Source: Alphaproteobacteria bacterium
GTDB lineage: Bacteria; Pseudomonadota; Alphaproteobacteria; Rs-D84; CASDRH01
DNA: 64,000 nt
Direction of reading: 5' to 3'
NCBI GenBank assembly: GCA_025210155.1
Contig: JAOASE010000003.1
Location: forward strand, 11,519 to 75,518
The notes under the pieces were generated by a model. That model saw nothing but the letters and a program-made list of their open reading frames with translations, made no database searches and was not told where the DNA came from. The position numbers were made by a program, and so were the translations under genes. Below are positions 7,291 through 37,228 of the stretch, one piece after another. Within the stretch, counting starts at the first letter, position 1. The number at the start of each line of letters is the position of its first letter.

Positions 7291-7599
7291 ATGTCAGCAG
7301 AAGTAGAAATGATGAGAACTGGAATAGACATCTATTGGTGGATATCTGTCATAGAAATCCCAATCTTAGGACTTCTATTCTATCTTATAAGGAATAATGG
7401 GGAAGCAACTATTAAAGGGGATGAAAAGTTAGAGAATAAACTAGACTATCAAATTTCAGAATTACTAAAAGAATTATCAGAATTCAAGCTATATTCAGCA
7501 AAAGAATATGCATCAATATCATACATAAAAGATCTAGAAAAACGATTGACAAATCACTTAATAAGGATAGAAGAAAAAGTAGAAAATACAAAATTATAA
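7291..7599 (+). CDS. Hypothetical protein with an N-terminal TM helix and a coiled-coil (102 aa)
   Basis: SD GGGGAGAGA precedes the ATG. Hydrophobic IYWWISVIEIPILGLLFYLI segment. Confidence 0.4.
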   Translation: MSAEVEMMRTGIDIYWWISVIEIPILGLLFYLIRNNGEATIKGDEKLENKLDYQISELLKELSEFKLYSAKEYASISYIKDLEKRLTNHLIRIEEKVENTKL

Positions 7600-7652
7600 A
7601 CAAGTTTATTTAAAGTAAAGCTAGAATCGAATTGCAGAGAAGGGAGAGAACA

Positions 7653-8177
7653 ATGAGGCAAAGCATAAAAAAGGCACAATTACCAAATAATTTTAAAATA
7701 AGATTTATCATTTCAAAAACAATATTTGATGAATTAAAGAGCATGCCTCACAAAACCAAACAAAACTTCGAACTAATAGAAACTATGGCTCAAAGCATAA
7801 TAAATCTTCTAACGAATAATTCAAAAGAAGTTATCAAAACGACATGCAAAACGCTGTATGAGAATATAAGGTATACGCAAAAATATTTAATGCATCACAC
7901 AGAAGATGACCTAAAAAAATTTAACTATGGACTTACAAAAGATGTGTATGATGAAGCTTTCCGACAATATAAAGAAAACAAATTTTATAAATCATATCAA
8001 AGAACTGTTACTAAATTATTAAAAGGGTATCACGAACACAAAACAGAAGATAAATATAGAGAAAAACTTTTTCACTATCATAAAGAACAACACTTTCCAG
8101 ATTGGGCAAAAGAACAGTCTGAAATATTGAAGCTCTCGGGCTTCATTTTTTATAACCAAATAAGATGGAGTAAATAA
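7653..8177 (+). CDS. Hypothetical protein
   Basis: ORF 7632..8177. The ATG at 7653 follows GAAGGGAGAGAA, the likely start. Confidence 0.4.
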   Translation: MRQSIKKAQLPNNFKIRFIISKTIFDELKSMPHKTKQNFELIETMAQSIINLLTNNSKEVIKTTCKTLYENIRYTQKYLMHHTEDDLKKFNYGLTKDVYDEAFRQYKENKFYKSYQRTVTKLLKGYHEHKTEDKYREKLFHYHKEQHFPDWAKEQSEILKLSGFIFYNQIRWSK

Positions 8178-8179
8178 AA

Positions 8180-8398
8180 ATGAGAATATTAATAAAAGAA
8201 CTACTAAAAGTACTAGTCGTAGATATTGCAAAATTTGTAATAAACATAGCTAGTAAACCAGTTAAAGATATTGCAAGTAGTGTTGCAAAAGCAAGCGCAA
8301 ATGCAGTCGCAGTAAGAGCAGAAAAAACAAAAGCAGATATAAAAGAAATGATTGAATCATCTAAAGAAAAGCTGGAGGAAAAACTAAATGACAAATAA
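8180..8398 (+). CDS. Small Ala/Lys-rich protein (72 aa)
   Basis: Overlaps the next ORF in ATGA...TAA fashion, suggesting translational coupling. Confidence 0.3.
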   Translation: MRILIKELLKVLVVDIAKFVINIASKPVKDIASSVAKASANAVAVRAEKTKADIKEMIESSKEKLEEKLNDK

Positions 8399-9164
8399 CG
8401 AAATCAAAAAAGAAGTTAAGGAAGAAACTAAAAAGGTTGAAGAAGTTACAATTTCTAAAAAACCAGATTTCTTACCAAAAAAATTCTGGGATGAAGAGCA
8501 GGGCACAACAAGGCTGGAAGAAATGTCTAAAAGTTATAAAGAGTTAGAAAAAAAACTTTCTCAATTAAGCCAAGAAGTAAATTCCCTTAAGGAGGAAAAG
8601 ATAGCAGCAGAGGATAAAAATCTTTTAAAAGGAGAAAGCTTACCATCATCTCCAAAACAATACTTAGACGAAATTGATTTCGATATAATAAATGCTTCAG
8701 AAGAAATTAACCAAGTTCTTTTCGATGCGAAATATTCCGTTGAGCAAGTAAGAACTTTCTACGATGTTTTAGTTAAGTTTATAATGCCTGAAATCTTAGA
8801 GCTATATCATGATGTGAAAGCATATAATGATCTAGAAAAATTAAAGGATTATTTTGGCGGAGAAGAAAAATTTGCTTCTATCTCTAGACAGATTAATTCC
8901 TGGGCAATTAAAAACCTTGAAAGCAGAGTTTACAAGAGTTTATCAAAGGATAGCAAAGGAGTTATTGCTATGTATAAAATGATGCAAGAAGAAAAAAACA
9001 ACAATTCCTCATCAATAAATTCTCTACAAGACGGACACAAAAAAACAAGAGAAGAAGAGGAAAAACATCTTAAAGATATGATGAAAAATCCTTCTTACTG
9101 GCGAGACAAAGATCCTGAATATAGAAACAAAGTAGAAGAAGGTTTTAAGAATCTATACACATAA
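8388..9164 (+). CDS. Putative scaffolding protein (T7 gp9-like C-terminus)
   Basis: Acidic coiled-coil protein. Its C-terminal MMKNPSYWRDKDPEYRNKVEEGF resembles the T7 gp9 C-terminus (…MSDPRYRTDANYRRQVEQKV), as recalled. Lies upstream of the capsid gene. Confidence 0.55.
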   Translation: MTNNEIKKEVKEETKKVEEVTISKKPDFLPKKFWDEEQGTTRLEEMSKSYKELEKKLSQLSQEVNSLKEEKIAAEDKNLLKGESLPSSPKQYLDEIDFDIINASEEINQVLFDAKYSVEQVRTFYDVLVKFIMPEILELYHDVKAYNDLEKLKDYFGGEEKFASISRQINSWAIKNLESRVYKSLSKDSKGVIAMYKMMQEEKNNNSSSINSLQDGHKKTREEEEKHLKDMMKNPSYWRDKDPEYRNKVEEGFKNLYT

Positions 9165-9378
9165 ATTAGTATAATAAATAGTATTTAAAGTATTTTGTGC
9201 GAATAGATGTAAAGATGATTTTTATATTTGGTATTGTGTATATTTTAATACTCAATTGCCAAAGATTAAAATCATTTTTTACGATTAGCTCGTGCAAAAG
9301 AGTTTAAATAATAATAATAGCTTGAAAAAAAGAACTAATAAGATATAATACGCTCATCAAAATAAGAAAGGAGCAATT

Positions 9379-9987
9379 ATGCCTTATAACAATAACAGAC
9401 GCGGTCCATATAAAAGTAACAACCGCAGAAGAGCAAAAAGCAAAAAAGGTTTGATTTATAAAATAAACGAAAACCTAATAATGAAATGGTCAATATTATT
9501 ACTAGTTATCTTCCATTTCGCAATGAGCGCTATGTTTAGAGCAGAAAACTTAAACCAAGTATTTGGTCTATCGGCAATAGCTGAATTTGGAGTTCTATCT
9601 TTAAGAATATTCCAATCATTCTTATTCATTTTCTTACCATTAGTATTAATCAAATACTTCAAAGTTAGAAAAGCAAGAATAAGCTTAAGCTCAATAGCAA
9701 GAAAAGCAATATGCAAAAGAATTGGCCTAGCAGTATTATTAGGTCTAGCAATCACATTGCTATCATTCTTCTCACCAAACAACGGTGGAGAATTCTTAGT
9801 AAGAAGATATGTAGGAATTTTTGCTATACACTCAATCTATGTGTTCTTAATGATTTCAGCATTAACAGGAATTTGGAAAGGTTTCTCTTTCATCTTCGAC
9901 GCTGAAAAACAACAAAACAGAAGAAGAAATAACAACGGATATAATAAAAATAATAGACGTCCAAGAAGAAATTATTCTAAAAAATAA
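9379..9987 (+). CDS. Membrane protein with four TM helices and Arg/Asn-rich N- and C-terminal tails
   Basis: N-terminal NNRRGPYKSNNRRRAKSKK and C-terminal KQQNRRRNNNGYNKNNRRPRRNYSKK tails flank the hydrophobic helices. Strong SD AAGGAG. Terminator at 10017-10050. Confidence 0.5.
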   Translation: MPYNNNRRGPYKSNNRRRAKSKKGLIYKINENLIMKWSILLLVIFHFAMSAMFRAENLNQVFGLSAIAEFGVLSLRIFQSFLFIFLPLVLIKYFKVRKARISLSSIARKAICKRIGLAVLLGLAITLLSFFSPNNGGEFLVRRYVGIFAIHSIYVFLMISALTGIWKGFSFIFDAEKQQNRRRNNNGYNKNNRRPRRNYSKK

Positions 9988-10016
9988 TTTTAGTTTCTAC
10001 TGAGAAGTAATTACAA

Positions 10017-10050
10017 AGCCCTAAGTTTTCCTAGGGCTTTTTTGTTATTT
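10017..10050 (+). terminator. Intrinsic terminator (agcccta-loop-tagggct + T-run)
   Basis: Perfect 7-bp stem, 8-nt loop, TTTTTGTTATTTTT. Confidence 0.75.
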
Positions 10051-10337
10051 TTCTAAATAGCAATTAAGAGACAAACCGAAAGGTCCTCTAAACAAAAAAC
10101 AAATAAAATCAAGGCGTTTTAATCAAATTAAAACACAACCTATCGCAATTAAATAAATCAAAAAAAATAATATCACGAAAATCTTCGCAAATAAGTATTT
10201 AGGGTTTAACCGAGTATTTTGTGCGAAGGAAGGTAAAATAAATTTTAAATCGCAGGGAGTTTATAGTTAATAAATGACCAAGATTTAATAATTGTAATTT
10301 TGCCTTAAATTCGTGCAAAAGACGAAAGGTAAAAAAA

Positions 10338-11165
10338 ATGGCTAATACTATAGACCAATCATTCATAAAAAACTTCGAAGCAGAAGTTCACTTAGCATAC
10401 CAACAAACAGGTACAAAATTAAGATCAACAGTTAGAGTTAAAAACGACGTAATTGGATCAGCAACAGTATTCCAATCAGTAGGTCAAGGAACAGCATCTA
10501 CTAAAGAAAGAAACGGCTTAATCCCAGTGATGAACGCAACACACACACCAGTAGAATGTGATCTACAAGACTACTACGCAGGCGACTGGGTAGATAAACT
10601 AGATGAATTAAAAACAAACATCGACGAAAGAGCTGTTATCGCATCAGCAGGTGCATACGCTTTAGGTAGAAAAACAGATGAGCTAATCATCACAGAACTG
10701 TCTAAATCTACTCAAGAAGTTGTTGAAAATTCAGAAGGCTTAACAAAAGGCAAAATCATGAAAGCTATCGAAACATTAAACGCAAATAATGTTCCAGACG
10801 ATGGTCAAAGATATGCTGTTGTAGGCGTTCACCAATGGACTGAATTATTAAATATGCCAGAGTTCACTTCAGCAGATTACGTAGGTGATAACTATCCACT
10901 AGTTAACGGTGCAGAAGCAAGAAAATGGATGGGGGTAATTTGGATCTTACACACAGATTTGCCATTAAGCACAACAACAAGAGAATGCTTCATCTACCAC
11001 AAGAATGCAATCGGTCACGCAATCGGACAAGATGTAAAAACAGACATCAGCTGGCAAGGTGAAAGAGCTGCAAACTTTGTATCAAACTGCATGAGCCAAG
11101 GTTCAGTTCTTATCGACGCAAAAGGCGTAGTAAAAGTATCTTGCGACGACACAACATCAGTTTAA
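10338..11165 (+). CDS. Major capsid protein, T7 gp10-like (short form)
   Basis: The C-terminal GERAANF...GVVKVS resembles T7 gp10 ...ERARRANF...AVVFKV. Position between the scaffold and gp11-like genes. A strong terminator follows immediately, as Tφ follows gene 10 in T7. Confidence 0.6.
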   Translation: MANTIDQSFIKNFEAEVHLAYQQTGTKLRSTVRVKNDVIGSATVFQSVGQGTASTKERNGLIPVMNATHTPVECDLQDYYAGDWVDKLDELKTNIDERAVIASAGAYALGRKTDELIITELSKSTQEVVENSEGLTKGKIMKAIETLNANNVPDDGQRYAVVGVHQWTELLNMPEFTSADYVGDNYPLVNGAEARKWMGVIWILHTDLPLSTTTRECFIYHKNAIGHAIGQDVKTDISWQGERAANFVSNCMSQGSVLIDAKGVVKVSCDDTTSV

Positions 11166-11189
11166 AAACTGCTTGAGATATAGAATATA

Positions 11190-11216
11190 AGACCGTTTTC
11201 AAAGCGGTCTTTTTCT
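11190..11216 (+). terminator. Intrinsic terminator directly after the capsid gene (agaccg-ttttcaaag-cggtct + T)
   Basis: 6-bp stem plus T-run. Same position as T7 Tφ. Confidence 0.7.
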
Positions 11217-11374
11217 CATTTAAAGCATACATTTTGAATCAACACTTTAACTAATTTACAATATCCAAGTTGACTCAACACTTCAATTGAATCAATTAAT
11301 TAAGAATATAAGCCTAAGAATCGGAAAAGACTCAAACTTTAACCAATAAAATCACCAATTTACAGGAGAACAAA

Positions 11375-11953
11375 ATGCCATCATCTACAACAAAAATCGA
11401 TATTTGCTCAAAGGCCTTAATGAAGATAGGAGCAAGTCCAATCCAATCACTAGAAGAGAATACTTCAGAAAGCATTATCTCATCTCAATTTTATGACATA
11501 GTAAAAGAGAGTTTATTATCAGAACATGAATGGTCTTTCGCAACAAAAACACAGGAATTAAATATCCTGAATGTAGAGAGTGATCAAGAAGGATACGAGA
11601 ATGTTTTCCAATTACCACATGACCTAATAAGAGTGTTAAGCATAAGCTCTTCAGCAAATGGAATTTCTATAGACTATAAACTTTATCAAGATGAAATTCA
11701 TACCAACGCAGAGAAAGTTTATATCACATACATATATAGAGTCGGAGAAAAATACTTTCCTCAATTCTTTGTAAATTTAATGACTACTTCTTTAGCAAAA
11801 GAATTTGTTATGCCACTGACGGAAGATAACTCAAAATATAACTCATTAATGAACGAAAGTATAATGCTTTTATCAAAAGCTAAAAACCAAGATTCAGATC
11901 AAACAAAAATTAAAAAGATAAAAACATTTAGTTTAATTTCAAGCCGTAATTAA
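11375..11953 (+). CDS. Tail tubular protein A (adaptor), T7 gp11-like
   Basis: 192 aa (T7 gp11 is 196 aa). ICSKALMKIGASPIQSLEE...SEHEWSF resembles gp11 VNDILASIGEPPVSTLEG...SRGWTF. Confidence 0.7.
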   Translation: MPSSTTKIDICSKALMKIGASPIQSLEENTSESIISSQFYDIVKESLLSEHEWSFATKTQELNILNVESDQEGYENVFQLPHDLIRVLSISSSANGISIDYKLYQDEIHTNAEKVYITYIYRVGEKYFPQFFVNLMTTSLAKEFVMPLTEDNSKYNSLMNESIMLLSKAKNQDSDQTKIKKIKTFSLISSRN

Positions 11954-11981
11954 AAAATTAAATTAATAAAGGATACAATAT

Positions 11982-14063
11982 ATGCAAAAGTCATACACAA
12001 AAAGCAACAACTTCAGATTTGGAGAAGTGAATTATTCTGGCTTAGAGAACTTAGGATCCAAGTATAAAAACAATACATCTTTCCTTCAAAGAAATATGCA
12101 GGTAGAAGAAACTGGTCAAATCAAACGAAGACCTGGATTAAAGAAAATTTCAGACCTTGAAGAGAATGCTAAGATTATTTCTATGCAGACTAGCATAGAA
12201 GACAAATATATTTTAGCTATAGGAGAAAGTAAGATAAGAGTTTTCAAGGACGATAAGCTAATCTGTACAATATCAAAAAGCCCCTTTAAAAAAGAAATAC
12301 TTTCAAGTTTGCAATATATCTCTAAAGATAATAAAATTTTCGTTACCCACCCAGACATAGAAACAAAAGTCATAGTAAAAGAAAGCGATACTAATTGGAA
12401 AATTCAAAATATAGAATTTGATATAGATTCTTATACGGGTGAAAGTTTTGAGCCATTCGCATACTTTGAAGATATGCAAAATAAAGGTATAAAAGCAACT
12501 CCTATAATAATAGATCCAGAAGATTTAGATTGGGATCAAGAGGGCGCTGGTGAATGGGTTTTAAATCCAGATTGGATGGAGAGAAATGAACCAGCATATA
12601 CTTTCGTAGAGGACGAATCTACACCTCCCCCTCAAGTAGAAATAACATGCTCCGATATATATGATATATTCAATTTCGATTGCAAAAATATAAAAATGAG
12701 AATTGGAGATGGGGAATATCGAATTACCCACGTAGTAACAACAAGGAAGTTACTAGGAGAAATAATAAAGCTTCCTACTGATTTTAAAGAGAAAAATCCT
12801 TCAGTCTCAGAACAAGCCTTTTCAAAAAAGCGAGGTTGGATAAGAAGTATAAATTTCTATCAAAACAGAATGGTGGTAGGTGGATCAAAATCGCTTCCCA
12901 AAAGAATATGGATGTCTAAAACAGATAACTTCTTTAATTTTAATTTAGGATCAGCATACGATGGAGATGCTATAGAATTTGATATACTTTCCCAAAATGA
13001 AGAAACTATTCAAACAATATTTACAGGAAGACATCTTCAGGTTTTTACAAATAATGCTGAATGGATAGTAACAGGATTTCCTATCACACCAACTAGTATA
13101 CAATTGCAGAAACAAACAGAACTAGGTTCAAACCAAGACAACTATCTTAGCCCTCAGTTTATAGAAGGTTCTACAATTTTTATATCTAAGAACAAATCAG
13201 AAGTTTGCGAATTCTTCTTTGGAGAAATAGAGGAGCAATATCAAACAGAAAACCTAGTTAGCTTATCTAATCATTTATTAAATAAACCACTAGAAACATC
13301 TTACAATAAAAATGAAAAAATATACTTTATAGTAAACAACGATGGAAGCCTAGCCACATTGACCATGAGTAAAAATTATGGAGTTAGATCTTGGGGACTA
13401 TGGGAAACAAAAGGTTCATTTATCTCAGTGGAAAGTTTGAATGAAGAAACTTATGTGGTAGTAAGAAGAAACGACAAACCATATTTAGAAAAGTTTGATT
13501 TCACAGAATTAAATACCTATACAGATTGCGAGATTACCATATCCAGAGAGGATGATAAAAGAGATAATATATTTGAAATTATAGATTATCCAGAACTTTT
13601 AAAAATAAAGGACTTAAAAGAGCAAACTAATGCAATAATTTTAGCAATAGGAGACGGCGAATTCCTAGGAGAACCTATCATAGAGAATGATGCTATAAAA
13701 CTTCAAAAACCAGTTAACAATCTAAGATTAGGAATAGCATATAGGCATATCCTTGCTCCATCACCAGAGATGATAGAATTTAAAAAGATAAGATTGCTGG
13801 AAGTTTCTTTCAGATTATCAGAAAGTAAAAACCTTTCAATAGATACTGGGCAAGGAATAAAGAATATATCATTAAAAGAATACGATAATTCAGAAACATT
13901 CCTTTCTTCAGAAAATATAAAAGGAACTTTCTCAGGGGATATAAATATAAAATCATTCGGATGGAAAAAAGCAGGAAGCCAAATACTTTGGAAAATAGAT
14001 GATTATTATCCAAACAATTTCAAGGTAATTTCATCACTCTCAAAATTTATTGTAAATAAATAA
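11982..14063 (+). CDS. Tail tubular protein B (nozzle), T7 gp12-like
   Basis: 693 aa. N-terminal ETGQIKRRPGLKKISDL...KIRVFKDDK resembles gp12 ETEGLQKRPPLVFLNTL...GIRVFDLSGNEK. Internal FYQNRMVVGGS...NFFNFNLGS resembles gp12 FFRNRLGFLSG...KYFNFYPAS. Confidence 0.7.
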   Translation: MQKSYTKSNNFRFGEVNYSGLENLGSKYKNNTSFLQRNMQVEETGQIKRRPGLKKISDLEENAKIISMQTSIEDKYILAIGESKIRVFKDDKLICTISKSPFKKEILSSLQYISKDNKIFVTHPDIETKVIVKESDTNWKIQNIEFDIDSYTGESFEPFAYFEDMQNKGIKATPIIIDPEDLDWDQEGAGEWVLNPDWMERNEPAYTFVEDESTPPPQVEITCSDIYDIFNFDCKNIKMRIGDGEYRITHVVTTRKLLGEIIKLPTDFKEKNPSVSEQAFSKKRGWIRSINFYQNRMVVGGSKSLPKRIWMSKTDNFFNFNLGSAYDGDAIEFDILSQNEETIQTIFTGRHLQVFTNNAEWIVTGFPITPTSIQLQKQTELGSNQDNYLSPQFIEGSTIFISKNKSEVCEFFFGEIEEQYQTENLVSLSNHLLNKPLETSYNKNEKIYFIVNNDGSLATLTMSKNYGVRSWGLWETKGSFISVESLNEETYVVVRRNDKPYLEKFDFTELNTYTDCEITISREDDKRDNIFEIIDYPELLKIKDLKEQTNAIILAIGDGEFLGEPIIENDAIKLQKPVNNLRLGIAYRHILAPSPEMIEFKKIRLLEVSFRLSESKNLSIDTGQGIKNISLKEYDNSETFLSSENIKGTFSGDINIKSFGWKKAGSQILWKIDDYYPNNFKVISSLSKFIVNK

Positions 14064-14150
14064 TATTAACTATTGATTTAAACTTTCATATGAGTAAACT
14101 ACGATGAGTTATTTTATATAACTAAATTTAAATATGAAGGAGAAATCATA

Positions 14151-14429
14151 ATGAAAAAAGTATTACTTACAGCTATTATAGCTTTAACAGCATCATGTGC
14201 TACAAGACCTCACCAAGTTACTAACGTTAAAGTAGCTCCAAGTGAATTAAAAGTTGGAAAATCTTGTGAAGATAGATTTTTACACATGTTCCCAATGGGT
14301 TCAAAAAATGGAAACTCAATTCTTAGAGCTAAAGAAAGTGCTGGTATTACACAAATTATGAGTGTCGATGTAGAAGGTAGAAACTGGATCTTAGGTTCAA
14401 CTGAATGTACTATCGTTACAGGTAAATAG
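14151..14429 (+). CDS. Small lipoprotein (signal peptide plus lipobox LTASC)
   Basis: MKKVLLTAIIALTASC. Strong SD AAGGAGAAATCATAATG. Own terminator hairpin at about 14445-14480. Confidence 0.5.
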   Translation: MKKVLLTAIIALTASCATRPHQVTNVKVAPSELKVGKSCEDRFLHMFPMGSKNGNSILRAKESAGITQIMSVDVEGRNWILGSTECTIVTGK

Positions 14430-14516
14430 TTTACAAAACTAAAGAATTAAAATTACAGTCGGAAATATCCGGCTGTTTTTTTTATACAATAATCAATCAC
14501 AAAAGGAGAGATAAAG

Positions 14517-14993
14517 ATGATATCACTAATATCTAGTGTCAACTCACTAGGATCTGATCTAATTTCAGGGAGCAGTTCAAAGGACGAAAGCCGATTGGCT
14601 AGAGAAAGAGCAAAAGAAGAAAGCAAAATAAATAAAGAAATAGCAGAAGTTAATAAGTACTATTCTGATTTAGAAAGTAGAAATCTTTTAGAAGAAAATC
14701 TAAGCAATATTTCAGCAAACTACGGAGCTTATAATATGAGTTCTACAGAAGGTTCTGCAAAAGCCGCAAAGAATAGAGCCGTTAGAGATTACAATAATGA
14801 CACAGCTCAAAGGCAAAAGCTATTTGATCTAAATATGGAAAAAGCAGACAAACAACTTCAATTTGATACAGAGGCAAATCTATTAGAATATGATAAAAAT
14901 TCTAAAAGAAATAGCCTTAACAATTTCGAAAATATATTAAAAGAAATCGAAAGCCACGACGAAACTCTAAGATCTCAAAGATATAGAACATAA
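14517..14993 (+). CDS. Hypothetical coiled-coil protein (phage module)
   Basis: SD AAAGGAGAGATAAAGATG. No recognisable motif. Confidence 0.4.
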   Translation: MISLISSVNSLGSDLISGSSSKDESRLARERAKEESKINKEIAEVNKYYSDLESRNLLEENLSNISANYGAYNMSSTEGSAKAAKNRAVRDYNNDTAQRQKLFDLNMEKADKQLQFDTEANLLEYDKNSKRNSLNNFENILKEIESHDETLRSQRYRT

Positions 14994-15005
14994 AGGAGAG
15001 AAAGT

Positions 15006-15719
15006 ATGATAACTAACAAATCAGTCCTAATAACATACCTAGCAAATGGAACTTCAAAACAATTTTCATTCCCATTTAAAATATATTCAGCAGATGAATT
15101 AAAAGTGTCCATAAATGGAAAAGAAATACAAACTACATTCATTATAGAATATCACGAAGATGTAGAAGGTGGAATGATAACATTTGAAACAGCTCCAGTT
15201 ACAAATTCAGAAGTCTCAATCAAGAGAGTTCTAGATATTACGAGAAAGCACGACTTTCAATCAGGTGGAAGCTTCAGAGCTGAAGACATAAATCAAGAAC
15301 TAGACTACCAAACTCTGTGCCTTCAACAAGTTAATTACGAACTTGGGAATGCAATGAAATTTGGATCAGATGTCGAAGATCAAGATATAGACTTAACTGT
15401 TCCAGAACCAAAAGCGGGTTGTATGATGGTTTGGAACAAAACAGAAAATGGACTAGAACTAAGAAACGCTGACCTAATAATAGAAGCAAGCAATGAAGCT
15501 CATGACTATGCAACTATCTGCCAAGATATGTACGATGCAATGTCTACATTATTAGGAACTTCAGAGACAGCGGGTTTAGCAGGAAAAATCCAAGACATAT
15601 TAACTTTCTTAAATAATAAATTCCCAGAAGACTTTGATGATAATGGTGAGATAAAAGATAGCTCATTAGTATCTAATGACTTAGGAGAAATCACAGAAGG
15701 CGATAATGGCGGAATTTAA
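15006..15719 (+). CDS. Tail fibre protein, N-terminal (tail-attachment) domain only, T7 gp17-like
   Basis: MITNKSVLITYLANGTSKQFSFPFKIYSADELKVSING...VSIKRVLDITRKHDFQSGGSFRAEDINQ parallels T7 gp17 MANVIKTVLTYQLDGSNRDFNIPFEYLARKFVVVTLIG...IELRRVTSTTDRLVDFTDGSILRAYDLN. The protein is 237 aa against 553 aa for gp17. Confidence 0.7.
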   Translation: MITNKSVLITYLANGTSKQFSFPFKIYSADELKVSINGKEIQTTFIIEYHEDVEGGMITFETAPVTNSEVSIKRVLDITRKHDFQSGGSFRAEDINQELDYQTLCLQQVNYELGNAMKFGSDVEDQDIDLTVPEPKAGCMMVWNKTENGLELRNADLIIEASNEAHDYATICQDMYDAMSTLLGTSETAGLAGKIQDILTFLNNKFPEDFDDNGEIKDSSLVSNDLGEITEGDNGGI

Positions 15720-16347
15720 AGATGAAAAAAATTTAAAAGAAAATATAGAAAAAATAACATTTTTAGATTTCATAGAATTATGGAATCAAGATCAGGAGCA
15801 AACAACTCCTGCCCACCATAAAAAGATTGCACGGTGGTTAGAAAAATTATGGCTTGAAGAAAAGTCAGACAGAAGAGGGGTTTTAATGTCCTTCAGAGGG
15901 TCAGGTAAATCTACCATAGTAGGTTTATTCTGCTGTTGGCTACTTTATCAAAACCCAAATCTAAGAATATTGGTAATATCAGCAGAAGAACGCCTAGCTG
16001 GTAAAATGAGCAAAAATGTCAAAGCCATAATAGAAAGACATGCGCTGCTTTCACATCTTATACCAAAGAAAAAGGGAGGGCGATGGGCAAGCAAAGAATT
16101 CACCATAGAAAGGTTCAAAGAAATGAGAGACCCTTCAATGCTTGCCATAGGACTTTCAGGAAACGCAACGGGATCTAGAGCCGATATAATAATATGTGAC
16201 GATGTCGAAGTCCCAAATACTTGCGATACTGAATTGAAAAGAGAAGAGTTAAGAGAGAGATTGGCAGAGTTAGAATTTATAATAACGCCAAAAGGAATGA
16301 TTCTATATGTGGGTACTCCCCATACAGAAAATAGTATTTATTATTAA
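15706..16347 (+). CDS. Terminase large subunit, ATPase domain (T7 gp19-like), N-terminal ORF of a split gene
   Basis: Walker A FRGSGKST and Walker B IIICDDVEV. LRILVISAEER, TGSRADIIICDDVEVPNT and LYVGTPHTE match T7 gp19 LKILIVSASKER, TGSRADIIIADDVEIPSN and IYLGTPQTE. Ends with TAA at 16345-16347. Confidence 0.85.
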   Translation: MAEFKDEKNLKENIEKITFLDFIELWNQDQEQTTPAHHKKIARWLEKLWLEEKSDRRGVLMSFRGSGKSTIVGLFCCWLLYQNPNLRILVISAEERLAGKMSKNVKAIIERHALLSHLIPKKKGGRWASKEFTIERFKEMRDPSMLAIGLSGNATGSRADIIICDDVEVPNTCDTELKREELRERLAELEFIITPKGMILYVGTPHTENSIYY

Positions 16348-16681
16348 AAAAAGAATCAGTAAAAGGGAAATATTCATTTTTGGACAAAAAAATATGTCAA
16401 GAAAGTTCTAAGAAAAAACAGTGGCTTACAACTTAAAAATAAGAAAAATGAAAAAAATGTCAAAAAATAGTTGACAAAATAAAATGAAAGTTCTAAACTA
16501 AACTTACTTTCGGAGATCTCCCTACTTATTTCTCTCTCCTCTTTAAGAAGACTCCGAAAGTTCTTTTTAATCCTCGGAGTTTCCTTTATATATCCTTTCC
16601 TCCTTTTTTTAAGAGCTCCGAGGTTTATTTAAAATGCGCCGCAAGGCGTTTTTTTATTGTCTAAAATCCAGGGGAGAATAA
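16348..16681 (+). other. 334-bp non-coding insertion splitting the terminase gene; carries two ~64-bp tandem hairpin repeats, a TTGACA-N17-TAAACT promoter-like site and a GCAA-tetraloop terminator
   Basis: Hairpin A 16506-16561 (actttcggag / ctccgaaagt, 10 bp, 36-nt CU-rich loop). Hairpin B 16572-16623 (cctcggag / ctccgagg, 8 bp, CU-rich loop). Units A and B align as direct repeats. 'gaaagttct' occurs three times. Terminator 16636-16657 (cgcc-gcaa-ggcg + T7). Then the SD GGGGAGAATAAATG. Confidence 0.6.
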
Positions 16682-17551
16682 ATGCAAAAGATTTACAACA
16701 AAACAATAGATAACGAATTAAAACCTAAAGAAGAAGAAACAGAAAAGCTTCTATCAGGATATAAAAGATTAAAAATTCCTTTGTTATCAGAGGCTGGAAG
16801 ATCAGCTTGGTCAAAAAGATTTCCTCTGAAAAGAATTAAAGAACTTCGTAAACGAGTAGGGGAAAAGAAATTCCAAGCTCAAATGCAATTACAACCAGTA
16901 AACTTAACAGATCCATTTTTCGATATAAATGATTTCAAAACATATGACATATGCTTTTCAAAAACAGAGCAAAACTTCCGATCAGTCTATAAAATTAATA
17001 ATGAAAAAGTCGTCCAGGCCTCATCCTATTGGGATCCATCTTCATGTGGAAGAAAAAGAGACGGTTCAGTTCTAGTCATAGCATTCAAAGATAACAAAGA
17101 CAGAATATACATAGAAAAAATCATATACTTAAACTCAATTATCAAAAGAGGCGAGGAAGGAATAACGAAACAAATAGAAGAAGTTATTTCTATATTAAAA
17201 AAATACGATATAGGAATAATTCACATAGAAACAAATGGTATAGGGAAATTTATCCCAGAATTAATAAACAAGGAAATTCGCCGACTACGACTAAAAATAG
17301 AAGTCTCAGAAATTTATAATCATAACAGCAAGAGTATAAGAATTATGGAAGGAATAGAACCTCTAGTTTCAGCAGAAATAATAAGCTTTAATAAAACAAT
17401 ATTTTCTAAGGCAAATCAGTTCATAAATGAAATTAAAAATTGGCGACCAAACATAGACGGAAAAGATGATGGATTGGATGCCGTTTCAGGCATAACATTA
17501 AATAGGTTTAAGAATATAATTCCATCACCATCAATTATGAAATTTTATTAA
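16682..17551 (+). CDS. Terminase large subunit, nuclease (C-terminal) part, T7 gp19-like
   Basis: RIKELRKRVGEKKFQAQMQLQPVNLTD matches T7 gp19 [28 protein letters not shown]. An in-frame TAA lies immediately upstream of the ATG. Confidence 0.75.
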   Translation: MQKIYNKTIDNELKPKEEETEKLLSGYKRLKIPLLSEAGRSAWSKRFPLKRIKELRKRVGEKKFQAQMQLQPVNLTDPFFDINDFKTYDICFSKTEQNFRSVYKINNEKVVQASSYWDPSSCGRKRDGSVLVIAFKDNKDRIYIEKIIYLNSIIKRGEEGITKQIEEVISILKKYDIGIIHIETNGIGKFIPELINKEIRRLRLKIEVSEIYNHNSKSIRIMEGIEPLVSAEIISFNKTIFSKANQFINEIKNWRPNIDGKDDGLDAVSGITLNRFKNIIPSPSIMKFY

Positions 17552-17630
17552 AACTTTTTACTTTTATAAATATATGATTTTTGTTATAATAAAGCCAAAA
17601 TATACTAATAATTTTAAAAGGAGTTAGATT

Positions 17631-18077
17631 ATGACAAAATTCAATCAAAGAGGTAGAAGTATTGTAGAAGTTATCGGTGTTCTAGCAATAGCTTCAATCG
17701 GTATCGCTCTTGCAATGAGAACTTATCAAAAGAATGATGCAAAAGTAAAAATTACAAAGACTATGTATAATATTTCAGAATTAACAGATAGTATTAAAAC
17801 TATATACTGGGGAAGAAACAGCTATAGTGGAATAAATGTTACTCGTCTAGAAAATAAAGGTGTGGATCCTAAATTCTTAAGAGATGCATATGGTACAAGT
17901 TTAGTAATAGGTTCTCAATCTCCATTTAGTTCATATACAATCCAAATTGTAAATATTGAAGATCAAGAAGATTGCTATAAATTTGCTGCTAAAAAACTAG
18001 AAGGTATGGATGAAGCTGAAACGACAGATACATGCTCATCTACATCTAATAAAACAGTTACTTTCACTTTTAATTAA
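17631..18077 (+). CDS. Type IV pilin-like protein (prepilin-type N-terminal domain), tandem paralog 1
   Basis: N-terminus MTKFNQRG|RSIVEVIGVLAIASIGIALA: a Gly followed by Glu at +5 and a hydrophobic helix, as in class III signal peptides (KGFTLIELMIVVAII...). SD AAAGGAG. Confidence 0.55.
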   Translation: MTKFNQRGRSIVEVIGVLAIASIGIALAMRTYQKNDAKVKITKTMYNISELTDSIKTIYWGRNSYSGINVTRLENKGVDPKFLRDAYGTSLVIGSQSPFSSYTIQIVNIEDQEDCYKFAAKKLEGMDEAETTDTCSSTSNKTVTFTFN

Positions 18078-18089
18078 GGAATTTATAAG

Positions 18090-18557
18090 ATGAGAAAAAA
18101 TAATCAAAAAGGTATGTCTATCGTAGAAGTTTTAGGAACTTTAGCAATAGTAACAGTAATGTCAGTTCTTATAGTTTCTTTCTATACGAAAGTATCTACT
18201 AAAGCTACATTCAAAAGAACAGAATTCTTATTAGAAGATATTAGAGGAAAAATAAATTCTATTTATATAGATGGTAATTATTCAACTCTAACACTAGATA
18301 ATTTAAATGATGAACTAGAAGGCCAAGAATTAATAAAAGCAAAGCACCCATTCGGTGGAGACGTTGCTCTTTGCGGTTCATCAGACGGTTTCAATATCCG
18401 TTTAAGTGACCTAACTCTTGAAGAGGCTACTAAATTAGAAGCACTTGGAGAAGGTGACTTAGAAAAAGTATCAGACGATGTTTATAGAATAATTGCTTAC
18501 AAATCTAATAGTAAAGCAAAAGATTACGACAACACAAGATTTTGTAACAACTTCTAA
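18090..18557 (+). CDS. Type IV pilin-like protein, tandem paralog 2
   Basis: MRKNNQKG|MSIVEVLGTLAIVTVMSVLIV, the same architecture. Followed by the terminator 18584-18608. Confidence 0.55.
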   Translation: MRKNNQKGMSIVEVLGTLAIVTVMSVLIVSFYTKVSTKATFKRTEFLLEDIRGKINSIYIDGNYSTLTLDNLNDELEGQELIKAKHPFGGDVALCGSSDGFNIRLSDLTLEEATKLEALGEGDLEKVSDDVYRIIAYKSNSKAKDYDNTRFCNNF

Positions 18558-18583
18558 TAAAGTTTAAACAAAACTAATGAAAA

Positions 18584-18608
18584 CGCCCTCAATTGAGGGT
18601 GTTTTTTT
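18584..18608 (+). terminator. Intrinsic terminator (cgccctcaattgagggtg palindrome + T7)
   Basis: Perfect palindrome followed by a T-run. Confidence 0.75.
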
Positions 18609-18793
18609 ATAAAAAACTTCATCAAGCAATCTCTCCCCAGAGAGTTTTGGATAGTTTGCTTTAGATAGAAGCGAAAATGATTTTTAAATTTAATATTGCG
18701 TATATTAATACTCAATCGTTGAATTTCAAAATTATTTCTCGCGATTAGATGAAGTTAAATATACGAAACATTAATATTATAAAGGATAATTAA

Positions 18794-20329
18794 ATGAAAA
18801 AAATACCAGAAATAAACTCAAACTTAATAAATAGAGATACTCTAATTAAAGAATATAAAAAGGCAAAAAACAAAAGAAGCAATTGGGAAAATCTTTGGGA
18901 AGATTGCATAAAATATTCATCCCCAGAAAGATATGGAAGCTTCTATAACTCATTCCAAGAAGCTAATAAAAACAATGTAGATATCTACGACTCAACTGCA
19001 ATTTGCGGGGTAGAAAATTTAGTATCTACAATAGCTTCAAGCCTAACACCATCATATGAAAAATGGTTTAATTTATCTCTAGGAAATATCACTGTTGAGG
19101 ATGAAACAACAAAAGCAAATATTGAAAAAGATATAGAGAAAATAGAAAAAACAATTTCAGAAAATATCTCACTTTCAAACTTCGCGACAGAAATACAACA
19201 ATGTTACTTTGATCTAGTTACATTGGGAACCTCTTGTCTGTTCTTCGAAGAAAACCAAATAGGTAAAAAATCTGCCTTCAGGTTTAAATCAGTTCCATTA
19301 AACCAACTGACTATAGATGAAGACAGCGAAGGTAACGTAAATAAAATCTATAGAGAAACAAGCATAACGGTAGAAAATCTACAACTTCGTTTCCCAGAAT
19401 TTTTTGAAGAAAATGGTTTAAGTAACCTCGCAACAAAGTTCAAAGAAGAGCGAGTTAAACTGATTGAAGCTGTAGTCCCTAATATGAAAGAAATAGGACA
19501 GCAAGGCTTTGTATATACAGCATTTATAGAAGATGAAAAAAATATCCTTACACCTAAAAAATCAGCAAAAGAAGATAACATATTAGTATTAAAAGAAGGT
19601 GTCTTACAAAGCTCTCCATTCATTTGTTTCAGATGGTTAAAAACCTCAAGCGAAGTATATGGAAGATCACCGGTAATGAAGGTTCTTCCAGATATCAAAA
19701 CAGCAAACAAGGTTGTAGAACTAACTTTACAAAACGCAACAATAGCAATCTCAGGAGTATGGCAAGCTGAAGACGACGGAGTAATTAACTTTAATAATAT
19801 TGATCTGTCACCAGGTTCAATAATACCAAAAGCAATAGGCTCTCAAGGTCTATCACCATTACAAACAGGAGCTAACTTCAACGTTTCACAACTAGTCCTT
19901 TCAGACTTAAGAAACAATATAAATAAAGCGTTCTATACAGATGTTCTAGGTAAGCCGGAAGAAAGCAAACAAATGACTGCAACAGAAGTTTCTGCAAGAA
20001 CAATGGAATTATATCAAACACTTACAGCAGTGTTCTCACGACTTCAAACGGAACTCCTTACACCATTAATCGAAAGAGCAGTAAGCATCCTTAAAAGAAG
20101 AGGGGAGATAGCAAACCTAATCATAGATGGAAATATAATCTCATTAAAATACAGTTCACCAATAATGAACGTAAACAACGACAGAGAAATAGCAAACATC
20201 CAAAGATTTATATCTTCACTAAGCATTCTAGGAGAAGGTCAATTATCCAACATAATAGATACACAAAAGTTAATAAACCACCTAGCAGAAATCACATCCA
20301 TCCCAAAAGGATTGCTAAAAACAGCCTAG
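18794..20329 (+). CDS. Portal (head-to-tail connector) protein, T7 gp8-like
   Basis: 511 aa (T7 gp8 is 536 aa). The N-terminal YKKAKNKRSNWENLWEDCIKYSSP...IYDSTAICGVENLVSTIASSLTPSYEKW parallels gp8 RLKNDRAPYETRAQNCAQYTIP...WQAVGARGLNNLASKLMLALFPMQTW. Confidence 0.7.
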   Translation: MKKIPEINSNLINRDTLIKEYKKAKNKRSNWENLWEDCIKYSSPERYGSFYNSFQEANKNNVDIYDSTAICGVENLVSTIASSLTPSYEKWFNLSLGNITVEDETTKANIEKDIEKIEKTISENISLSNFATEIQQCYFDLVTLGTSCLFFEENQIGKKSAFRFKSVPLNQLTIDEDSEGNVNKIYRETSITVENLQLRFPEFFEENGLSNLATKFKEERVKLIEAVVPNMKEIGQQGFVYTAFIEDEKNILTPKKSAKEDNILVLKEGVLQSSPFICFRWLKTSSEVYGRSPVMKVLPDIKTANKVVELTLQNATIAISGVWQAEDDGVINFNNIDLSPGSIIPKAIGSQGLSPLQTGANFNVSQLVLSDLRNNINKAFYTDVLGKPEESKQMTATEVSARTMELYQTLTAVFSRLQTELLTPLIERAVSILKRRGEIANLIIDGNIISLKYSSPIMNVNNDREIANIQRFISSLSILGEGQLSNIIDTQKLINHLAEITSIPKGLLKTA

Positions 20330-22525: not shown

Positions 22526-22850
22526 TTTATATATTTTTGGTTATTTATATTTTATCTACTATACAAATCAGCATATACTCGAAAAAATATTTGTCAAGCT
22601 ATTTTTCAAAAATTATTTCTCTAATCAAATCTCCCTTGAAAATTATTAAATGGTCTGGTATCTTATTCCCATAAAAGGAAAGGTATTTTAAGATATTCAT
22701 CCAATAAACGACAACTCTTGGAGTTTTGGATAGTTTGCTTTAAATATTTTTAAAATCGGCTTTCGTATAGTATAAATAATACTTGAGAAATCGATTATTA
22801 AAAATAGATATGAAAAATATACGAAACCCTAGTATTACAAAGGAAATATA

Positions 22851-23753
22851 ATGAAAGTTTACGTAATATATCACAGAACAGATTTTGATGGCAGAGGTTC
22901 AGCAGCGGTAATAAATGACTTCTACAGAAACAAAGAAGGTTTCGAAATAGTAAACATTCCATTAAATAATGAAGAAGTTCCTCATGATTATAAAGAATGG
23001 GATAAAGATGCCATGGTTTATATGTCAGATATATCTTTTCCGAAAAGAGAGCAAATGGAATATTTGCTAGAAACTTACGGTGATAACTTTATTTGGAATG
23101 ATCACCACGCATCATCTATGAAGAATTGCGAAGGTCTAAACATTAGAGGTATACAAAGAGCTGATTACGCAGCAATACAACTAACTTGGTTCTGGTTCAA
23201 TCAAGATAAATTTTCAAGTATAGAAACAGCTAAATTCCCAGAAGCAATAAATTACGTAGGACACGTAGACATAAAGAAACCTTTAAAAGATTCAGAAGAA
23301 TTCCTTACGGCATTAATTTTGCATACAGAGTTATATGACCCAACAAATCCAGATTGGGAAAAATTAATAAATAACGATGAAGGTATGCTTTCTACATTAT
23401 TAACAGAGGGCAGGGTAGCTCAAAGATATAGAGAGTCTATAGAGCAAGAAGCAGCTCAAGAAATCATTCATTTCGTAGAGTTCGAAGGTTACAAAGTTCC
23501 AGCAGCAAATATATACTTCTTCAAGTATGAAGTATTCTTCCACGCAAAAGAAGGAAACCTATATGAGGAGTATCCATTCGTAATAACTTATTATAGAAAT
23601 AACGAAGGACAATGGAAGCTTTCTCTAAGAGGAACTGGTAACGAAAAGTATAAAGATATCGATGTAAGTCTCCTAGCTAAAAAACATGGTGGCGGCGGTC
23701 ATAAAAAAGCTGCAGGCATCAGATCTAAAGAGCTTCCGTTCAAGTATCTATAA
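22851..23753 (+). CDS. DHH/DHHA1-family phosphoesterase (NrnA-like nanoRNase / pAp phosphatase type)
   Basis: HRTDFDGRGSAAV (motif I), NDHHAS (DHH), and C-terminal KHGGGGHKKAAG (the DHHA1 GGGH motif). Confidence 0.7.
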   Translation: MKVYVIYHRTDFDGRGSAAVINDFYRNKEGFEIVNIPLNNEEVPHDYKEWDKDAMVYMSDISFPKREQMEYLLETYGDNFIWNDHHASSMKNCEGLNIRGIQRADYAAIQLTWFWFNQDKFSSIETAKFPEAINYVGHVDIKKPLKDSEEFLTALILHTELYDPTNPDWEKLINNDEGMLSTLLTEGRVAQRYRESIEQEAAQEIIHFVEFEGYKVPAANIYFFKYEVFFHAKEGNLYEEYPFVITYYRNNEGQWKLSLRGTGNEKYKDIDVSLLAKKHGGGGHKKAAGIRSKELPFKYL

Positions 23754-24553: not shown

Positions 24554-24621
24554 GCCCCTAAAAAAATTCTTTTTATAAAGAAACAAAACGATTAGTCGTG
24601 CAAAAAACGAAGGAAAAAATA

Positions 24622-25737
24622 ATGAACGCAGCAGCGAAAAAAGACATAAAAACAATAGCAATATTTAACTCGGGTGGAGACTGTGCCGGTCTAAACCAAG
24701 CCATGTATGGTATTATGAAAAGAGCGCAACAAAAAGGCATAGAAGTTTACGGTTTATTTAATGGAGACGAAGGCTTCGGAACAGCTAACCCAGTTTGTGG
24801 TAAACTAAACTACAACCACTTTGATATTCACTTCGACAGATCTGGTACAATACTTGGTTCAAGAAGAGGTGGTGTTGTAGATCTAGGAGAAAGCGGTTTA
24901 GTTTCTGACTTTGGTGAAGCTACAATAGACGAAGAACAACTAAAAATTTTCAAAGAAAATATTAGAAAATATAACATCGATGGTATTATTTTCACAGGTG
25001 GTGACGGAAGTATATATGCAAACAAGTTCTTGGCGGAATTAATTCCAAACACACCAATTATAGCTATACCAAAAACAATCGATAACGATACACCTTGCAC
25101 AGATTATTCTCTAGGTTTTGATACGGCTTGTAACCAAGTTATAGACGTAATCTCAGCACTAGAAATGACATCTTACTCTCATGACATGATTATGGTTGTA
25201 GAAGTTATGGGTAACTCAGTTGGTCACATAGCAATCAACTCAGGTGTTGCAGGATGTGCAGACGCAGTTCTAATCCCAGAAATAGAATATGACTTCTGTG
25301 AACTATACAAACATATTCAAAAAACAAGAGCTTCATTCTTTAAAAAGGCAATTACTATCGTAGTTTCAGAAGGTATCAAAAAACTTCCTGAAGATGAAAA
25401 AGATCCTAAATACAAAGGTATGAGTGCTGGTCAATACATAGTTGAAAAATTCAAAGAAATGGGTGAGAAAAATATCAGATGTAACATTCCAGGTCACATA
25501 CAAAGAGGTGGAAGAGTTACAATCAAAGATAAAATTAAAGGTATCGAATTCGGTACTCACGCCCTAGACCTAATGATAGAAGGTAAAAGAAGTGTAATGG
25601 TTTGTGATGACGGTGGTAAGGTATCACATGTAGCATTTAGCAAAATGTTTAAGTCAAACACTACAGTTGCAGTCCAAAAAGACTCTGACATAGTTAAGAC
25701 AGCTAAAGATTTGGGAATTTACATAGGTAAAATTTAA
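24622..25737 (+). CDS. pfkA: 6-phosphofructokinase
   Basis: NSGGDCAGLN, FTGGDGS, PKTIDND and GHIQRGG motifs. The listed ORF starts at a GTG at 24598, which lies inside a conserved upstream leader motif; ATG 24622 (MNAAAKKDIKTIAIF...) is the likely start. Confidence 0.85.
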   Translation: MNAAAKKDIKTIAIFNSGGDCAGLNQAMYGIMKRAQQKGIEVYGLFNGDEGFGTANPVCGKLNYNHFDIHFDRSGTILGSRRGGVVDLGESGLVSDFGEATIDEEQLKIFKENIRKYNIDGIIFTGGDGSIYANKFLAELIPNTPIIAIPKTIDNDTPCTDYSLGFDTACNQVIDVISALEMTSYSHDMIMVVEVMGNSVGHIAINSGVAGCADAVLIPEIEYDFCELYKHIQKTRASFFKKAITIVVSEGIKKLPEDEKDPKYKGMSAGQYIVEKFKEMGEKNIRCNIPGHIQRGGRVTIKDKIKGIEFGTHALDLMIEGKRSVMVCDDGGKVSHVAFSKMFKSNTTVAVQKDSDIVKTAKDLGIYIGKI

Positions 25738-26205: not shown

Positions 26206-26348
26206 AGATATAATTTTTATATAAAAACTGTGTTCTTAAATAAATATCAACATCAAAAATATTTGTAAAGTAAAAAACAATTGACAAATTGATAGTATAA
26301 TAATATTTTCCTAAGAAGAAAAAAATATAAACCTCAAATTACAGTTAA

Positions 26349-26765: not shown

Positions 26766-26890
26766 TATTTGATAAGATTTAAAAAGGCATCCCTCCAGGG
26801 GTGTTTTTTTGTGAAAAAAATATTTGACAAATTGGTAGGATAATAATATTTTCCTTTAGGAAAAAAATTTAAACCTTTAAAAAAAGTTAA

Positions 26891-36069: not shown

Positions 36070-36211
36070 AAGGCTTTTAGATAAAATTAAGGAGTTACAA
36101 TTTGTGACTTCTTTTTTTCAATTGATTTCCCAGTAAAAGAATTTATAATAATTAAAGAAAAAAACTAGAATAGTTTCTATTTAAATTCGTGAAAAAGACG
36201 AAGGATTAAAA

Positions 36212-37228
36212 ATGAAGATATTGGGCATAGAATCATCTTGCGATGAAACAGCAGTAGCTATAGTAAATGAAAAAGGTGAGGTATTATCACATCAATTAAT
36301 ATCCCAAACAGAACACCTTGAATACGGTGGTGTAGTTCCTGAAATTGCATCAAGAGCACACGTAGACGCTATAGACTCGCTATTCAATAAAGCCCTAGAT
36401 GAAGCTAATTGTAAAATAGAAGACTTAGACGCAATATCTGCGACTACAGGTCCAGGACTTGTCGGCGGACTTATTGTAGGCACAACATTCGCCCAAGCTA
36501 TAGCAGGCTTCTCAAATAAACCATTCATATCAGTTAATCACTTACAAGCACATGGACTTATGGCAAGAATGGGAACAGATTTACAATTCCCATATATACT
36601 ATTGCTAGTATCAGGCGGACACACACAAATCCTTCTAGTTAAAGACGTAGATGACTTCGAACTTATCGGTGAAAGTATAGATGACGCCGCAGGAGAATGT
36701 TTCGACAAAGTAGCTAAGATTATGGACCTACCATATCCAGGGGGACCAAAGATAGATAAGTTATCAGGCGAGGGTGACTCAAATAAATATACCTTACCTA
36801 AACCTCTTATCAAAGAACCTAATTGCAACTTCAGTTTTTCAGGTTTAAAATCTGCATCATTAAGATTAGTTAATGATCTACAACCAATAGACGAAACAAA
36901 GAAAGCAGATATATCAGCCGTATTCCAAAAAACAGTTTGCGAAATAGTAGATGTAAAAATTCGCAGAGCTTTGGACGAAGTTAAGAGCAGGGGAATCAAT
37001 CCAACATCTTTAGTTGTTAGCGGTGGTGTGGGTGCTAATTCAGGAGTTAGAAAAACTCTTCAAAATATATCGGAAGAAAGCGATATAGACTTCATTGCCC
37101 CTCCAATCAAACTTTGTATGGATAACGGCGTAATGATAGCCTGGACAGGTTTAGAATTATTTAGAAAAGGTAAAACATCTCCACTAGATATAGTTCCAAA
37201 TCCAAGATGGCAATTAAAAGACCTATAA
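36212..37228 (+). CDS. tsaD: tRNA N6-adenosine threonylcarbamoyltransferase TsaD
   Basis: MKILGIESSCDETAVAI..., VSGGVGAN; the Kae1/TsaD family. Confidence 0.9.
   Translation: MKILGIESSCDETAVAIVNEKGEVLSHQLISQTEHLEYGGVVPEIASRAHVDAIDSLFNKALDEANCKIEDLDAISATTGPGLVGGLIVGTTFAQAIAGFSNKPFISVNHLQAHGLMARMGTDLQFPYILLLVSGGHTQILLVKDVDDFELIGESIDDAAGECFDKVAKIMDLPYPGGPKIDKLSGEGDSNKYTLPKPLIKEPNCNFSFSGLKSASLRLVNDLQPIDETKKADISAVFQKTVCEIVDVKIRRALDEVKSRGINPTSLVVSGGVGANSGVRKTLQNISEESDIDFIAPPIKLCMDNGVMIAWTGLELFRKGKTSPLDIVPNPRWQLKDL

Follow-up and report, generated by a model that had tools for sequence, protein, structure and literature searches.

A short motif that directly precedes the start codons of the capsid, pfk, and tsaD genes in a 64-kb window of an alphaproteobacterial genome (the window being the whole stretch of DNA analyzed, 64,000 nt) is, on balance, probably the 3′ foot of a lineage-specific structured mRNA leader repeat that originated in a T7-like gene cluster and was copied in front of pfk and tsaD. 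At the level of sequence comparison, the membership of the motif in a repeat family, the RNA-level constraint on the sense strand of the long hairpins, and the lineage-specific presence of the copies are demonstrated. In the scheme proposed here, full-length copies would be transcribed in sense and would fold just upstream of the Shine–Dalgarno sequence (SD) or the promoter of ORF 9379 and of the capsid and portal genes; the DHH gene would have a shortened version of the leader upstream; and pfk and tsaD would carry the right arm only, abutting the SD. These right arms would have been acquired after the split from the sister species, by segmental copying or by replacement of the leader segment next to the ribosome-binding site.

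Copies of the Motif

The three copies lie on the + strand: TTCGTGCAAAAGACGAAAGG at 10310–10329, 8 nt before the capsid ATG at 10338, which comprises the 3′ foot of the capsid-leader hairpin and the SD; GTCGTGCAAAAAACGAAGG at 24595–24613, before the pfk ATG at 24622; and TTCGTGAAAAAGACGAAGG at 36186–36204, before the tsaD ATG at 36212, the last two being one-armed. Their consensus is TCGTG[C/A]AAAA[G/A]ACGAA[A]GG. A search for the 18-mer with up to three mismatches finds exactly these three matches in the 64-kb window, all on the + strand, against a mean of 0.04 in shuffled sequences (none of 100 shuffles reached three). The positions given by an earlier reading of the sequence alone (the sequence-only reading) are thus confirmed, and Pfam agrees with the downstream genes that it named (PF19821 phage capsid, PFK, and TsaD). 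The partial copy that it placed near 9283–9302 is also real: CGATTAGCTCGTGCAAAAGAG spans 9282–9302 on the + strand and is the 3′ arm of a hairpin. As had been proposed, the G-rich end of the motif resembles an SD, the AAAGG, AAGGA, and AAGGA cores ending 7–8 nt before the three ATGs and so within the 5–10 nt expected of a purine-rich SD; this assignment uses sequence and spacing, the 3′ end of the 16S rRNA lying outside the window. Two features had been missed: an inverted repeat within the motif, (T)TCGT-N7-ACGA(A), and the place of the capsid and partial copies as arms in far longer hairpins. An interpretation of the motif as an att site was considered and set aside.

These counts cover the window and about 5.5 kb of flank read past its ends, in which there are no further copies, out of a contig of 1,048,500 bp (1.05 Mb) from the MAG of an uncultured alphaproteobacterium. 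The window has 31% GC, and its proteins are MCT4552144–MCT4552173, with locus tags N4A44_*. Scans for the exact pattern gave, in viral contigs and among the metagenome-contig matches listed (at least 120, a list that does not reach the copies of the window), only chance matches in the coding DNA of unrelated organisms at any GC content. The GAAAGG string is ancestral to the capsid gene, as relatives have atGAAAGGA (L266) and taaGAAAGGTAAAAC (L251) in its leader. It is uncertain where the copied segment ends on its 3′ side, and part of the similarity may correspond to generic SD sequence.

Long Hairpins in the Leaders

Three long hairpins are predicted on the + strand. Hairpin 1 (9182–9310) lies between the scaffold gene and ORF 9379, with a minimum free energy (MFE) of −41 kcal/mol (z −5.9); its 5′ arm, AGTATTTTGTGCGAA, is at 9189–9203, and its 3′ arm is the partial copy of the motif. 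Hairpin 2 (10209–10330), in the capsid leader, has an MFE of −38.7 kcal/mol (z −4.5). The 5′ arm of its fold, GAGTATTTTGTGCGAA, is at 10212–10227, where GAGUAUUUUGUGCGAA pairs with UUCGUGCAAAAGAC, the 5′ half of the motif, and at the bottom of the stem ACC (10209–10211) pairs with GGU (10328–10330), including the GG of the SD. Hairpin 3 (18644–18769), in the portal leader, is diverged, with an MFE of −36.8 kcal/mol (z −5.25). A sliding-fold scan of the whole window finds strand-asymmetric long hairpins at these three sites only. Terminal inverted repeats, AGTATTTTGTGCGAA...TCGTGCAAAAGA, bound the elements at 9189–9302 and 10213–10322, with imperfectly complementary arms (right arm TCGTGMAAAARA, left arm TATTTTGTGCGAA) around a short noncoding core.

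The intergenic regions preceding ORF 9379, the capsid gene, the portal gene, and the DHH gene are related over 100–140 nt when aligned, with E values of 5e-14 and 1e-3; for example, 9203–9319 and 18665–18779 are 70% identical over 117 nt (E 5e-14). The family in the window comprises three long copies (about 115–130 nt), one short, and two one-armed, and all six are in sense orientation inside 5′ leaders. With Rfam 15, two tRNAs are the only hits to reach the gathering score in the window, and a sensitive scan of 9000–10400 yields weak, chance-level matches only. A second shared leader, AAATATACGAAACATTAATATTATAAAGGATAATTAA, on the + strand at 18757–18793, precedes the portal ATG (18794) and is 81% identical to 22815–22851. 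Just upstream of the portal SD, the segment at 18758–18783 (AATATACGAAAC...) is also 81% complementary to 18681–18706, on the 5′ side of the upper stem; this alternative pairing would be in competition with the long hairpin, a possible switch.

The folds of hairpins 1, 2, and 3 are much more stable on the + strand (−41.0, −38.4, and −37.0) than on the − strand (−24.8, −18.2, and −16.6). When the left arm of each hairpin is aligned with its right arm in reverse complement, the transition mismatches give a G·U pair on the + strand in 15 cases and on the − strand in one (binomial P 5e-4). RNAalifold on the three copies predicts 39 pairs, eight of which have compensatory double changes. Together with the uniform sense orientation, this points to a constraint on the transcribed sense-strand structure rather than on a DNA palindrome. 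Strand-biased C-to-T mutation could account for part of the G·U bias, although it is unlikely to yield a 15:1 ratio by itself. No covariation is seen in the small hairpin of the motif itself, one pair of which is missing in the pfk copy.

Leaders of pfk, tsaD, and DHH in Two Species

No long hairpin is predicted for the leaders of pfk and tsaD (fold z of −0.3 and −0.6, respectively). Both have only a local hairpin of 4–5 bp (−2.8 and −3.7 kcal/mol), (U)UCGU-N7-ACGA(A), placed flush with the AAGG, and their similarity to the family reaches into the right arms over about 25–35 nt. The tsaD copy resembles the capsid copy, both having TTTAAA, and the pfk copy resembles the one at 9282, as the CGATTAG ahead of it recurs in the right arm at 9282–9302. 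A degenerate left arm proposed for tsaD at 36109–36129 is unsupported by fold statistics. Upstream of the tsaD motif are, on the + strand, the mltA terminator (36089–36113) and a promoter-like TTGATT-N16-TATAAT (36122–36149), both conserved in the sister species, which places the motif about 30 nt inside the predicted 5′ UTR. The suggestion of a shared 5′-UTR element holds insofar as the motif lies in the leader and runs into the SD; the motif is not a free-standing box.

The sister species is represented by contigs L267 (with tsaD) and L269 (with pfk and DHH) of SRR13663708, which were reached via members of 90% protein clusters and show 79–86% nucleotide identity. Upstream of its tsaD, the terminator tail and TTGATT-N16-TATAAT are kept and are followed by the unrelated ATATTAACTCTTTATAAAAGGAAAATAAATTG at the site of the motif, and its pfk leader is conserved up to TTATAAA and continues with ATAAATTTATACATTAGGAGAAATGTAATTATG, without the motif. 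In both leaders, the homology with the window breaks sharply about 40 nt before the start codon. The two genomes differ at the DHH gene as well, where the window has, on the + strand at 22684–22863, a portal-type leader of about 170 nt that is missing from L269. It includes a short hairpin (22745–22806), a AAATATACGAAAC..AAAGGA leader with its own SD, a new ATG, and four new codons, and it follows a vestigial ancestral SD, ATAAAAGGAAAGG (22671–22683, + strand), that aligns to the SD and ATG of the sister. By comparison with the empty site of the sister, the new sequence took the place of about 31 nt, with no sign of a target-site duplication. Given the vestigial SD, this comparison shows a gain by replacement in the lineage of the window. 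The DHH leader is the one site with a usable empty-site comparator and direct polarity; for pfk and tsaD, we infer by parsimony a gain here rather than a loss in the sister species. Sequences from further samples of this strain (L001–L003, L262, L263, and L268) are identical and so carry no information on polymorphism.

To the right of the DHH gene and pfk, 26272–26338 and 26815–26881 form a tandem duplication of a promoter-like region of about 67 nt (TTGACAAATTGRTAGKATAATAATATTTTCC). Its copies precede the distant paralogs ORFs 26349 and 26891, for which the sister species has a single gene.

The T7-Like Cluster and Its Relatives

The long hairpins are located in a T7-like cluster that contains structural genes only and extends over about 7.3–20.3 kb of the window (7291–20329). 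It includes genes for the scaffold (8388), ORF 9379, the capsid (10338), tubular tail proteins A (11375) and B (11982), the fiber (15006), the large terminase, split in two (15706 and 16682), and the portal (18794), and it is flanked by housekeeping genes (DJ-1/PfpI, birA, and the DHH/DHHA1 gene). Immediately downstream of hairpin 1 is a promoter-like TTGAAA-N16-TATAAT (9322–9349, + strand, 11 of 12 matches). On the same strand, a terminator-like hairpin at 10015–10040 separates ORF 9379 from the capsid leader, and a second one, at 11189–11211, follows the capsid gene. The terminase ORFs (15706–16347 and 16682–17551) are separated by a gap of 335 nt with a terminator-like hairpin (16636–16649) and no match to an intron family in Rfam. 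A similar split is found in L266 (14861–15511 and 16063–16965). L258 keeps the N-terminal part only, and there ftsZ and a tRNA separate this fragment from the portal gene. In the window, two paralogous small proteins are encoded between terminase and portal (17631–18077 and 18090–18557), one of which is named in NCBI as type II secretion GspH/pseudopilin family, which is unexpected in a phage-type structural cluster.

The lineage is isolated. The next best TsaD homolog is 54% identical, and a TsaD search of genome contigs gave best relatives at 50% identity with unrelated leaders that lack the motif. The capsid protein, in contrast to TsaD, has thousands of matches at 65–72% identity, encoded on long chromosomal contigs of Alphaproteobacteria. 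The cluster has the look of a domesticated particle module that was inherited vertically and is possibly akin to a gene transfer agent; a literature search found no published description of it. Neither the motif nor the long hairpins occur in the module intergenic regions of the relatives examined (80 IMG/VR loci and two long MAG contigs), nor in capsid relatives at 60–72% identity, whose capsid leaders have short hairpins only. The tsaD leaders of the module relatives likewise bear no relation to that of the window. The module intergenic regions of L258 and L266 have no long hairpins, and so no conserved position of the T7 type is found. The boxes AAGGCGTTTT and AACACAACCT (10111–10141, + strand) are common to the capsid leaders of relatives, including L266. 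As the distance from AACACAACCT to the SD is about 180 nt in the window and about 40 nt in L266, the palindrome of about 112 nt is, by this alignment, an insertion into the capsid leader.

Among the relatives L179–L255, there is a shared layout about 50–200 nt upstream of the capsid ATG (compare 10111–10141 in the window). It begins with a palindrome, CAGTCAGA-N6-10-TCTGACTG, and GGACAATCC..GGACCC, continues with a box, GGCG(C/G)-variable hairpin-(G/C)CA(T/C)AACC, with one covarying pair (C-G in 15, G-C in 12), and ends with a short variable hairpin with a T-run and TTTAACAAAAGGA. A sigma-54 promoter was rejected for the GGCGC..GCATAACC box because its spacing varies from 11 to 18 nt, and RNAalifold gave no robust structure for this box. 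In L182, L183, L200, and L216, two or three genes per locus have an SD leader of 14–16 nt in common (for example, AACAAAAAGGAATAA), at the same distance from the ATG within a locus. Hence, SD cassettes recur in this module family.

Alternative Explanations

A selfish palindromic DNA repeat of the MITE, RPE, or Correia-like type, without a role at the RNA level, would also produce palindromic, noncoding elements of about 113 nt that are confined to intergenic regions and differ in presence from the sister species; the pfk and tsaD copies would then be decaying one-armed remnants left after deletion of the palindrome. Logan contig SRR21418661_12653 starts within the portal-leader hairpin, at about 18655 of the window, which is consistent with a repeat-induced assembly break. 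We regard this explanation as unlikely, since it fits poorly with the 15:1 excess of G·U pairs on the + strand and the strand asymmetry of 13–20 kcal/mol, with the sense orientation of every copy in a 5′ leader, and with a replacement of about 31 nt without target-site duplication at the DHH gene. The motif does belong to a dispersed repeat family, which the sequence-only reading had named, for a family without positional bias, as a refutation of its proposal; this family is, however, biased in both position and orientation. Among other options, the same reading had raised a binding site for a common RNA or protein regulator. Such a site could be an operator or RNA-binding site that coregulates capsid, pfk, and tsaD, recognized by a dimeric protein on TTCGT-N7-ACGAA, by an RNA-binding protein, or by a small RNA, for which the 5′ arm of the hairpins themselves, UAUUUUGUGCGAA, would be the candidate, acting in trans. 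The three near-identical copies of 18–20 nt at a fixed distance from the ATG, as well as the inverted repeat, would fit this proposal, and pairing of the 5′ arm is predicted with the leaders of pfk (−14.8 kcal/mol) and tsaD (−9.7 kcal/mol). However, the motif is missing from both orthologous leaders of the sister species, from the tsaD leaders of distant relatives, and from the module relatives; the half-sites have just 4–5 bp, and the spacer is the best-conserved part; the partial copy retains the 5′ half only because this half pairs with its own left arm; and no regulator was identified. A shared regulator is quite improbable, since not even the sister species has conserved the sites, and the claim that the capsid copy ties the module to host regulation finds no support either, with the motif absent at pfk and tsaD of the sister.

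T7-like phages have conserved promoters of about 20 nt that end in G-rich starts. By analogy, the motif might drive the three genes as a promoter read by a phage-type single-subunit RNA polymerase, ending in GG, or by an alternative sigma factor, the more so as there is no sigma-70-like promoter on the + strand between the terminator at 10015–10040 and the capsid ATG. Yet the window has no ORF of the size needed for a T7-type polymerase, tsaD has a good promoter-like site upstream of the motif that is kept in the sister species, and initiation at GG would leave the transcript without its SD, all of which makes a promoter very improbable. An upstream ORF starting at the GTG within the motif is hardly credible. 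It would encode MQKTKGKKNG* at the capsid gene and MKKTKD* at tsaD, and it would be in frame with pfk. Differences among copies do fall at third codon positions (AAG/AAA), and the JGI annotation of pfk begins at this GTG (24598, 379 aa), whereas the NCBI annotation begins at the ATG at 24622 (371 aa), the start favored by SD spacing. Against it, the GTG has no SD, just 5–6 codons are common to the copies, and the frame relative to the main ORF differs in all three. Both promoter and upstream ORF are thus unlikely.

Possible Roles of the Leaders

For the structured mRNA leader proposed here, the long hairpins would most likely act in cis, on mRNA processing, mRNA stability, or access to the SD. 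They may be substrates of a double-strand RNase of the RNase III type, as at the intergenic sites of T7 or in the Correia elements of Neisseria (PMC2649163). They may instead protect the 5′ end of the mRNA; a gene for RNase J is found about 5 kb beyond the right end of the window. An SD-access switch is another option, given that the GG of the SD takes part in the bottom pairs of the capsid hairpin. As for pfk and tsaD, their copies are now probably plain ribosome-binding leaders without a shared regulator. It is a rather improbable extension that the cluster exported its structured leader to pfk, tsaD, and DHH and that a single factor (a double-strand RNase, an RNA-binding protein, or the released 5′ arm of the hairpins as an antileader RNA complementary to the motif) cocontrols particle production and host metabolism.

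The empty-site comparison indicates that ribosome-binding leaders of core genes can be overwritten by the structured leader of a phage-derived cluster over a short evolutionary distance. Overwriting of this kind is a concrete way for domesticated phage modules and host genes to acquire cis-elements in common. Caution is also called for, since the cause of near-identical upstream motifs within one genome can be recent copying instead of a regulon. Pending transcript mapping, the finding has limited practical value.

Comparison with Known Systems

The family is a new lineage-specific variant within the known class of transcribed palindromic intergenic repeats. ERIC repeats of enterobacteria are imperfect palindromes of about 100–150 nt found beside genes in intergenic regions; cotranscribed into mRNA hairpins, they can be bound or cleaved by RNase III and can alter the expression of adjacent genes. 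The same is reported for the Correia repeat-enclosed elements of Neisseria (CREE/NEMIS; PMC2649163). The elements in the window are similar to both in being imperfect intergenic palindromes of about 100–150 nt beside genes, with a presence that differs between related genomes. They differ from both in showing no target-site duplication where this is testable (the DHH site), in being strictly in sense and abutting the SD, with one-armed copies that replace the native ribosome-binding leader, and in being centered on a phage-derived cluster, with six copies in 64 kb.

Phage T7 has irregular, mutually sequence-related RNase III hairpins between its genes (R0.3, R1.1, and others), whose processing defines mRNA ends and affects stability and translation. 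The long hairpins are likewise irregular, related to each other, and located between genes of a T7-type unit, cleavage being a candidate function only. Unlike the T7 sites, they are about twice as long, are absent from the relatives of the module, and lie behind intrinsic terminators. Rickettsia palindromic elements (RPE) are often inserted in frame into coding genes. The likeness with these is one of general type, that of AT-rich palindromic repeats of about 100–150 nt that spread within a lineage of small alphaproteobacterial genomes, and the contrast is that the copies in the window are found in leaders only. Reused or mobile promoter and 5′-UTR segments are near-identical short upstream pieces that precede nonhomologous genes and arise by duplication. 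The copies before capsid, pfk, and tsaD show the same pattern within one genome, with the difference that the copied piece is here the leader segment next to the ribosome-binding site, the promoter region of tsaD being native and conserved.
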